A stretch of 64,000 nucleotides of DNA from Escherichia coli (GTDB lineage Bacteria; Pseudomonadota; Gammaproteobacteria; Enterobacterales; Enterobacteriaceae). The stretch is taken from assembly GCF_003018255.1 (NCBI RefSeq), contig NZ_CP027440.1; one strand, written 5' to 3'. The stretch's first letter is position 1, and the number at the start of each line of letters is the position of its first letter. Of the stretch, positions 13,101 through 16,100 are shown in pieces. Position numbers: made by a program.

Positions 13101-16100
13101 ATACCGCCAATGAAACCAAACGGGTTACGTGAAGCTTCCAGATAAACCGGCGTCGCCCCCGCCTGAATCAGCGCGCCGTGATGATTCGACTTATGGTTGT
13201 TACGGTCGAAGAGCACCAGATCGCCACGCGTTAACAGCGCATTCGTCACTACTTTATTCGCTGCCGATGTGCCGTTCAGCACAAAATAGGTTTTATCGGC
13301 ATGAAAGACTTTGGCTGCGAATTTCTGCGCATCTTTCGCCGATCCTTCATGAATAAGCAGATCGCCCAATTTTACGTCAGCGTTACACATATCGGCGCGA
13401 AAGATGTTCTCACCAAAGAAATCGTAAAAATGGCGTCCGGCAGGATGCTTTTTAAAGAACGCACCATGTTGATGTCCAGGGCAAGCAAAGGTGCTGTTGC
13501 CCATCTCAACGTACTGCGTCAGCGTGTCATAAAACGGTGGCAGCAAATTCTCTTCATACTGACAGGCTGCGGATTCCAGCTCCAGCCACTGCTGCTCGTT
13601 GCCGTTGATTACCGCCGTAACGCCCGCAGGTAATTCAACAACATGTTCGGAATACAAAAACACCGGTAGATGAAAACCGGTGCGCTTAAGCAACGCAAGA
13701 ATGCCACTGCGGCTATCCGCAGCGGTAATGACGACTGCCGCGACGTCCGTAAAATCAGTATCTCCCAACGCCACCACGCGGCGATGAGTAGAAAGTCGGG
13801 ATACCAGTTCACTACTGGCGGCAATATTCATTGATTTCATAAGCGCAAAACCCGTTTCGGGGAAGTAAGAATACCGGACAAGGTGTAAAACCCTGCCCCA
13901 TGAGATATGGGTCAAACTGGTCACCAGCTCCGACCGCCAGACATCAGTAAAAGCAGAAACGCTCTGATTTTACTGTTGTCCTGCAGTGAGCGTGCGTTAA
14001 CTTCACCGCATGAGCAGAAAAGGGAAGGAGTTTCGCGCGAAACGGCGATAAGCGAGAGAATGTAAGGAGGTGGAGTGCATCGAGCAAACTCCGTACAGAG
14101 AGGAGAAAATTCGCGCAATCATGGCACCTTTCACCAGAGCGTGCAAGCCAGGACTTTGCGAACAAACAAGCCATCGAAGGTGCCAAACGGTCATAATAAG
14201 AAAATCAGACAATGCAGCTAACAGGAACTCTTGTGGTCATCGGTCCTTTTATCAACGCAAGTGCAGTATTACTGGGTGGCGTTCTCGGTGCACTCCTTAG
14301 TCAACGCTTACCGGAACGTATCCGCGTCTCCATGACATCAATTTTTGGTCTGGCATCGCTGGGGATTGGTATTTTACTGGTGGTGAAATGCGCCAACCTT
14401 CCGGCGATGGTGTTAGCAACCTTACTCGGTGCATTAATCGGCGAAATGTGTCTGCTGGAAAAAGGCGTCAATACCGCGGTCACCAAAGCACAAAATCTGT
14501 TTCGCCACTCACGTAAGAAGCCAGCGCATGAATCTTTTATTCAGAATTATGTCGCGATTATTGTCCTGTTTTGCGCCAGCGGCACCGGGATCTTCGGGGC
14601 GATGAACGAAGGGATGACCGGCGATCCGAGTATTTTAATCGCCAAGTCATTTCTCGATTTCTTTACGGCGATGATCTTCGCCTGCTCGTTGGGTATTGCG
14701 GTGTCGGTAATTAGTATCCCATTACTGATCATCCAGTTAACGCTGGCGTGGGCTGCCGCGCTGATATTACCGCTGACCACACCGTCGATGATGGCAGACT
14801 TCAGCGCCGTAGGCGGTTTATTGCTGCTGGCAACCGGATTACGCATCTGTGGCATTAAAATGTTCCCGGTGGTCAACATGCTTCCAGCACTCCTTCTGGC
14901 AATGCCCCTTTCCGCCGCCTGGACCGCCTGGTTTGCCTGACAATGCGTGCATTAGCGGCAAAGTGATGATAGATTGTGCAGTCTGCAGTAAATTGAAGAA
15001 ATTTGATTGACGAGACGAGGCGAATCAGGTTTAATGCGCCCCGTTGCCCGGATAGCTCAGTCGGTAGAGCAGGGGATTGAAAATCCCCGTGTCCTTGGTT
15101 CGATTCCGAGTCCGGGCACCACTAATTCTTAAGAACCCGCCCACAAGGCGGGTTTTTGCTTTTGGCTCTGACAATAACCTTCACGAAAAAAATTAGCTTA
15201 TAAAGTCTGGGGGAATTACTCTCGCCACGTTAACGAGAGTAATTTTATTGATATTAATCTCCTGATACTTTACCCCCGTCCAAATTCCAGCCGCTGCACA
15301 TTCACCATTCCAGGCTTCTCACCTGCGCTGACATCAATTTGTGTCACCCGCAGCGCATACTTTTCATCCAGTGCTTTTAACCAGTTCAGCAGGTCATTAA
15401 ACACCACCGGATCTATCCAGACCTGAATATTCTCCCCGCGCTCAGCTATTCGCTTGATGACCACAGAGTGCACGGAAGCGCTGTCGCTGATGACCCGCGA
15501 TACCTGTGCTGGCGTTGTCGTGCCGGATTTTCGCGCTGCAATAATATCCGGCGCGGCGTTCTTCAGTCGGGTGTTCATTGCCACCAGCTGCTGCAACATC
15601 GTCTCCTGTTGTTCTATCCGTTCGCTCAACGGCTGCCAGATGAGGACGTAATATCCGACGCTAAACAGGAACACCACCGCTGCCAGTAACATGCCCTTTT
15701 CACGCGGAGAACGCCCCGCCAGATGTTGTGTCAGCCAGTGTTCGCCACGGCTTAACTGGCGTTCACGCCATTGCTGAAAATAGTGAATAAATTTATCGCG
15801 TAACATGTTATTTCCTCCGCAACGTTACGCCGCCGGAAACCGCATCACCCTCTTTCTGTAACGCGTCCTGTTGCACAACATAATCTGCCGCCAGTGCGCT
15901 ACGCAGTTTGTCGAAGCTGGCAAAGTTCGCAGCCCGTAGCTGGAGGTGAAGCGTCTGGCGTTTTTGATCAAAGGTGAAACCACGCATTTCGATGTCGGTA
16001 AGTGACGCTGATTTCAGGGTACTGGCGATCGCTGACAATTCTGCGAGCAGCCGGGTATCGTCGGCCTGCGGGCGATATTTTTTCAGCGCCATCGTCACCT

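Follow-up and report, generated by a model that had tools for sequence, protein, structure and literature searches.

What stands at the pheV integration hotspot of this Escherichia coli strain, and can the present state of the site tell us about its past? We examined a stretch of 64,000 nucleotides (contig NZ_CP027440.1 of assembly GCF_003018255.1), referred to here as the window, in which the tRNA-Phe gene pheV lies beside the genes of a type II secretion system of the beta type (T2SS-beta). The window very likely holds the empty state of the hotspot, with a vacant chromosomal attachment site (attB), next to a complete and inherited T2SS-beta operon. pheV is the sole tRNA gene found by ARAGORN in the window and is intact. 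Its 23-bp 3' end, the target of the P4-like integrases of pheV-associated genomic islands (GI-pheV), is present only once, and for this reason the site is regarded as empty. After the tRNA come its own terminator, a spacer of the type found in K-12, and gspM, which closes the sslE-pppA-gspS-gspC..M operon. This order agrees with a preliminary description of the stretch, which had the gsp locus directly after pheV: the next open reading frame (ORF) beyond the terminator is gspM, with the Pfam family T2SSM, and all homologous RefSeq loci annotate it as yghD/gspM. From pheV to gspM the spacer measures 148 bp, with ~105 bp of it 3' of the terminator, close to the "about 110 bp" estimated earlier. 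K-12 MC4100 (locus L026) has a spacer of identical length, and the sequence in the window shares 99.2% identity with the common K-12-type spacer of many genomes.

The preliminary description had also reported no duplicated tRNA 3' end, no integrase and no mobile-element genes, and all three absences were borne out. Within the window, a 24-mer and an 18-mer of the pheV 3' end (up to 3 mismatches) match the tRNA only, as do the 23-bp left attachment site (attL) and five variants of the right attachment site (attR) tabulated in Table 1 of PMC11537424, searched with gaps at up to 4 edits including indels. The attL 23-mer had 0 matches in 20 shuffles of the window. An attR at the distal boundary, present in about two-thirds of GI-pheV islands, was not found in the 64 kb. 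The P4-type integrase of strain TCM3e1, used as a tblastn query, gave nothing better than E = 4.8 in the window, and IS1, IS3 and IS110 probes from occupied loci gave only chance-level matches there by tblastn, blastn and tblastx. Moreover, all 64,000 bases are colinear with three RefSeq loci annotated by the Prokaryotic Genome Annotation Pipeline (L003 for positions 1-14200, L001 for 3247-43926 and L002 for 39000-64000), leaving no unaligned stretch of 15 nt or longer, and none of the features annotated in these three loci is an integrase, transposase or phage gene. The annotated content runs from yggS...speC through yqgA, tRNA-Phe, gspM...gspC, gspS-beta, pppA, sslE, glcA-glcC and yghO to a cluster related to lipids and lipopolysaccharide (LPS), pitB, gss, yghU and hyb genes.

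How does an occupied site differ? In TCM3e1 (L004), the match to the window ends exactly at position 15121, where island DNA with its own terminator and integrase takes over, the P4-type integrase lying 198 bp after pheV; no intP4 is found immediately 3' of pheV in the window. In MS20649 (L005) and in locus L015, the distal end of the island is a CP4-like module (antirestriction, RadC/JAB, CbtA/CbeA and DUF4942), followed by TTCGATTCCGAGTCC-GGCACCA, a degenerate attR of 22-23 bp that aligns to 15099-15121; beyond it, the terminator, spacer and gspM are those of the window. The attR of L005 is the 15099-15121 stretch with a 1-nt deletion, and the homology of L015 to the window begins at 15099. 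The attB core is placed at 15099-15121 because the attR of these two loci aligns there, in agreement with the published 23-bp repeat; it matches the attL and attR of PMC11537424 Table 1 and is identical to the attL of the occupied strains. The pheV terminator still adjoins attR in occupied genomes. In the window, unlike in these island-bearing comparators, the tRNA 3' end runs straight into the K-12-type spacer, supporting the earlier view that the site appears unoccupied.

A different kind of change lies beyond the terminator. EC9682 (L006) matches the window past the terminator to ~15169, where it gives way to an IS110 remnant and to kpsF-E-D-U, genes of the group 2/3 capsule (kps) locus, while in L007-L010 the homology stops at 15271-15283, at the gspM stop codon. 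Beyond gspM, Escherichia whittamii, Escherichia sp. E1V33 and E. coli E69 (L007-L009) encode an ABC-2 permease and ATPase pair, whose ABC2_membrane and ABC_tran ORFs are consistent with kpsM/kpsT. None of L007-L010 has the ~100-bp K-12-type spacer, which kps-bearing loci lack, and the kps arrangement, with kpsM/kpsT next to gspM and kpsF-S towards pheV, has no counterpart in the 148-bp interval of the window. The K-12-type spacer was also considered as a scar of kps deletion and rejected, as it has no homology to kps-bearing loci except at the gspM end and the terminator. From the junctions at 15121/15099 and at ~15169, together with the lack of the spacer in kps-type loci, it follows that the pheV-gspM interval has two separate variable points, both empty in the window: the tRNA 3' end, used by integrase islands, and the terminator-to-gspM stop, which is integrase independent. 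In E. coli the second point is where kps capsule clusters lie; other species have different cargo there.

Is such an empty site unusual? A survey of 5,426 complete E. coli genomes identified an uninterrupted yqgA-pheV-gspM-gspL junction (a single place covering 80% or more of a 2-kb query) in 1,482 of them (27%), and the K-12-type 126-bp spacer segment (15160-15285) stands next to gspM in 2,512 (46%). GI-pheV islands have been reported in 52% of RefSeq complete genomes, with direct repeats of 23 bp or 19 bp (PMC11537424). Given the 1,482 contiguous junctions and this published frequency, the empty pheV configuration of the window is common. At least part of the gspM-pppA block, single copy and chromosomal, occurs in 4,336 genomes (80%), and essentially the whole block in 3,214 (59%). 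The segment from nupG to glcA is found in one joined place, at 80% or more, in 792 genomes, an upper bound for the combination of an empty pheV with a full T2SS-beta.

The second half of the reading concerns the operon itself, which is transcribed towards pheV and bounded on the other side by the glc operon. All 13 secretion genes and sslE are intact and in one operon orientation, so that the T2SS-beta of the window is complete by gene content and predicted to secrete SslE. In strains W, H10407 and E2348/69, secretion of SslE, or of heat-labile toxin (LT), depends on T2SS-beta (PMC3707838). In K-12, an internal deletion fuses gspL to gspC and removes gspD-K. Gene families were assigned with Pfam to the GspG-GspM products of L013, a 100%-identical locus, and to identical or near-identical products in L012-L014, with T2SSM found directly on the GspM of the window.

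The preliminary description regarded the T2SS-beta block as ancestral backbone, a view supported by its single copy, the lack of mobility genes, a core-like G+C content at third codon positions (GC3) and synteny with Escherichia albertii. E. albertii (L024) has the same glcB-glcA-sslE-pppA-gspS-gspC..M order as the window, and the relatives of GspL in E. whittamii, E. sp. E1V33, E. coli E69 and E. albertii share 91-95% protein identity. Earlier work described T2SS-beta as adjoining the hypervariable pheV and as lost independently in several strains, reading its absences as deletions (PMC3707838), and T2SS synteny beside kps is conserved (PMC10272209). Because 80% of genomes have at least part of the block and the glcB-glcA-sslE-gsp order is kept in E. 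albertii, comparative evidence indicates that it is genus-level Escherichia backbone, lying between the glc operon and the variable pheV-gspM interval and presumably inherited vertically.

Several observations weigh against so simple a history. The G+C content of gspD-M is 55.7% compared to ~51% in the flanks, 20% of the complete E. coli genomes entirely lack the T2SS-beta block, and identity to the best complete genome is 96-97% for the block compared to 98.3-99% for the flanks. The block is also mosaic, a sign of frequent homologous exchange, and parts of it were therefore exchanged rather than strictly vertically inherited. Nor was direct pheV-gspM adjacency seen in any of four other representatives (E. 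whittamii, E. sp. E1V33, E. coli E69 and E. albertii): in the first three, the 5-6 kb beyond gspM contain no tRNA gene, and the 19 kb beyond gspM in E. albertii contain none either, tRNA-Phe included. In E. albertii, gspM is followed by genes for a LysR regulator, an Asp/Glu racemase and DcuB, a Wadjet-like JetABCD system, and then island or fimbrial DNA. Hence, the pheV-gspM adjacency is one form among several that this variable interval takes, and its ancestry is unsupported by these representatives.

Could the block instead be an ancient island that integrated at pheV, with its integrase and attR decayed beyond recognition? Its position immediately beside a tRNA hotspot would fit, as would the elevated G+C content of gspD-M, its absence from a fifth of genomes and the lack of a homologue in Escherichia fergusonii or Escherichia marmotae in a species-representative scan, which used few exact peptide patterns and can miss relatives. 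We nevertheless consider this origin quite improbable, since neither an attR (at up to 4 edits) nor a remnant of an integrase was found in the 64 kb, and the glcBA-sslE-gsp order is kept in E. albertii. Base composition points clearly neither to nor against a foreign origin: the gsp genes are moderately G+C rich, but so is the adjacent glc operon (55-58%), and with a GC3 of 0.57-0.67 the gsp genes overlap nearby core genes (0.64 for mutY and nupG). Deletions, such as the internal one of K-12, account better for the absences (PMC3707838). A backbone T2SS-beta beside a vacant attB remains the preferred reading, although "unoccupied" describes only the present state of the site: since excision by an integrase is scarless, an empty attB cannot show that no island ever stood there.

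Another question is whether the site is secondarily empty, an ancestral GI-pheV island, a kps locus or both having been lost by precise integrase excision or by recombination with an empty-site donor. Excision is scarless and regenerates a perfect attB, and at least 14 independent excisions of pheV islands have been inferred within clonal complex 95 (CC95) alone (PMC10272209). The DNA to the right of the junction is a patchwork that includes a 258-bp tract ~9% divergent, as expected near a crossover point, and the same gspL-gspH allele (100% identical over 15531-19000) stands beside an occupied site in L015. Against such a loss, the window has neither attR nor any island remnant, its spacer is nearly identical to the K-12 type, every one of the 24 contigs read with the exact GspM allele is empty, and the divergent tract lies inside gspM and not across the junction. 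On balance, a secondary loss is possible but rather unlikely. That the emptiness is an artefact, an island having been dropped or collapsed in a draft assembly, is scarcely credible. Over 7.2 kb the window has 100% identity to AAXLOB010000003.1 (319 kb, GCA_015687735.1), a contig of a draft assembly, and probably comes from an assembly of short reads, but islands break short-read contigs and do not vanish from them seamlessly, the junction is base for base the K-12-type empty junction of the 1,482 complete genomes, and the same neighbourhood recurs in all 24 contigs read with the GspM allele, whose carriers in the collection index include one contig longer than 1 Mb.

The divergent tract in the 3' half of gspM, which abuts the variable junction, differs from L012, L014 and L015 at 23 positions, although these three loci are 100% identical to the window at 15531-15806 and 16001-18000 and 99.8-100% identical to 19000; the pheV site of L015 is occupied. 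Its changes are mostly synonymous (17 versus 7), and its best match among the complete E. coli genomes is only 95.9%. As possible donors, E. whittamii, E. sp. E1V33, E. albertii and E. coli E69 were no closer than other E. coli (85-92% identity). Lying at the edge of the hotspot, the tract was probably imported as a short piece from a donor that has not been sampled. In the assembly collection, 80 blocks contain the exact GspM protein, and the 24 empty neighbourhoods were read from these. The identity profile of the T2SS-beta block is itself a patchwork, with 500-bp segments ranging from 86% to 100%. In sslE and the sslE-glcA spacer (27164-33000), identity to L001 alternates between 98-100% and 86-93% from one 500-bp block to the next, and sslE reads as a fine-scale recombination mosaic. 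One could go further and take the tract and the mosaic on both sides of pheV as the footprint of an exchange with an unsampled Escherichia donor that turned an occupied pheV/kps interval into an empty one. We regard this as a doubtful proposal: the tract is compatible with a site-resetting exchange without demonstrating it. If true, hotspot islands would be removed, as well as gained, by exchange between flanking homologies, beyond integrase excision alone.

The features on which these arguments rest are listed in Table 1.

Table 1. Positions of pheV, the empty attachment site and the T2SS-beta operon in the window
Feature	Position	Strand	Basis or remark
yqgA (DUF554 membrane protein), conserved, upstream of pheV	14233-14940	+	Colinear with annotated yqgA in L001, L004 and L026
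pheV, tRNA-Phe(GAA)	15046-15121	+	ARAGORN; Rfam RF00005, 68.3 bits; intact
attB core, 23-bp pheV 3' end, target of P4-like GI-pheV integrases	15099-15121	+	Single copy
pheV rho-independent terminator, GC-rich hairpin and T run	15130-15158	+	Terminator scan; fold
K-12-type spacer segment, replaced in kps-bearing genomes	15169-15270	none	Divergence of EC9682 from ~15169
Perfect 11-bp inverted repeat, 9-nt loop, just downstream of gspM	15214-15244	none	Repeat search
gspM-beta (yghD), last gene of the T2SS-beta operon	15270-15806	-	178 aa; Pfam T2SSM, E 6e-46; annotated yghD in L001 and L026
Divergent recombination tract, 3' half of gspM (probable)	15273-15530	-	258 bp, ~9% divergent
gspL, K, J, I, H, G, F, E, D, C	15808-25731	-	ORFs without internal stops; colinear with L001 annotation
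gspS-beta (yghG pilotin)	25749-26159	-	L001 annotation; intact ORF; Pfam T2SSS_2 on E. albertii homologue
pppA prepilin peptidase	26225-27034	-	L001 annotation; intact ORF; Pfam Peptidase_A24 on E. albertii homologue
sslE (yghJ), secreted M60-like lipoprotein metalloprotease, first operon gene	27164-31738	-	1524-aa ORF; annotated in L001; coordinates are ORF limits, annotated start a few codons inside

The hairpin of the pheV terminator folds at -18.8 kcal/mol (z -3.6 against shuffles). The inverted repeat downstream of gspM folds at -16.4 kcal/mol (z -2.85) on the minus strand, the sense strand of gsp, where it has no T run; it is possibly a candidate end of the gsp transcript. No sigma-70-like promoter was found in a promoter scan of 14800-15500. 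The DUF554 assignment of yqgA was made on the product of L013. Upstream, the speC-yqgA intergenic region at 14001-14200, with the small ORF yqgH, is unusually variable (94-95% identity in some strain comparisons) and has a 7-nt indel at 14018; the flanking genes are 98-99% identical.

Variable DNA was also observed elsewhere. In four E. albertii loci (L016, L017, L022 and L023), the segment from ~90 bp to 10 kb past gspM carries the LysR, racemase and DcuB genes and then the four-gene Wadjet-like (JetABCD/Mks) defence system, followed either by IS3 with the terminal part of a CP4-like island or by an integrase fragment with a chaperone-usher fimbrial operon. The window has a further variable point at ~3183-3247, in whose vicinity no mobility gene is annotated: strain Z1323HEC0462 (L001, 304-3139) has a TRAP transporter operon upstream of yggM, and the window and L003 have yggS...hemW. 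By the L002 annotation, an accessory-looking cluster at 43156-53012, of lower G+C content at its edges and lacking mobility genes, encodes a fatty acyl-AMP ligase, an NAD-dependent epimerase, an acyl carrier protein, a serine palmitoyltransferase-like enzyme, LptF/LptG paralogues, and YtfJ-family and LPS-biosynthesis proteins. Rfam identified the small RNA C0719 (294 bits) at 33965-34186 on the plus strand of the glcA-glcB intergenic region, opposite to the glc genes, and naRNA4, a nucleoid-associated RNA element of the repetitive extragenic palindromic (REP) type, on both strands at 59435-59511. Used as a query, the 40-64 kb segment matched E. coli genomes at a median of 31 places each, probably because of REP-type repeats.

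Set against known systems, the pheV-yghD junction of K-12 is closest in arrangement, with yqgA-pheV-yghD(gspM), a 148-bp spacer, the same terminator and no integrase, at ~95.7% identity over the 2-kb junction; K-12 differs in the gspD-K deletion and gspL-gspC fusion, while the window keeps all gsp genes. K-12 is also the comparator by which GI-pheV ends are defined (PMC11537424). The islands of the GI-pheV or PAI-V type have a P4-like integrase, occur in strains such as CFT073, 536, EC958 and H10407, use the 15099-15121 stretch as their attachment site and rejoin the terminator-spacer-gspM sequence at their distal end (L005, L015); the window, in contrast, has no intP4, attR or island cargo. 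The kps locus occupies the same pheV-T2SS interval, its kpsM/kpsT end abutting gspM (L006-L009; PMC10272209), and the window has the ~100-bp K-12-type spacer in place of kps genes. The T2SS-beta/SslE systems of enterotoxigenic E. coli H10407, enteropathogenic E. coli E2348/69 and E. coli W have the same sslE-pppA-gspS(beta)-gspCDEFGHIJKLM order beside pheV (PMC3707838); that of the window differs in its mosaic alleles, 96-97% identical to the best complete genomes, and in the rare gspM 3' tract.

The empty pheV arrangement is therefore not novel but ordinary and well described in E. coli, where the architecture of the locus, occupancy frequencies and T2SS-beta synteny have been published (PMC11537424, PMC10272209, PMC3707838), and its significance goes little beyond correct annotation. 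For annotators, this is a strain without a pheV-associated pathogenicity island or a group 2/3 capsule locus. Unlike K-12, it has a complete T2SS-beta, predicted from its genes to secrete SslE, and its single 23-bp attB, which would still be competent for integration, is available for island acquisition.

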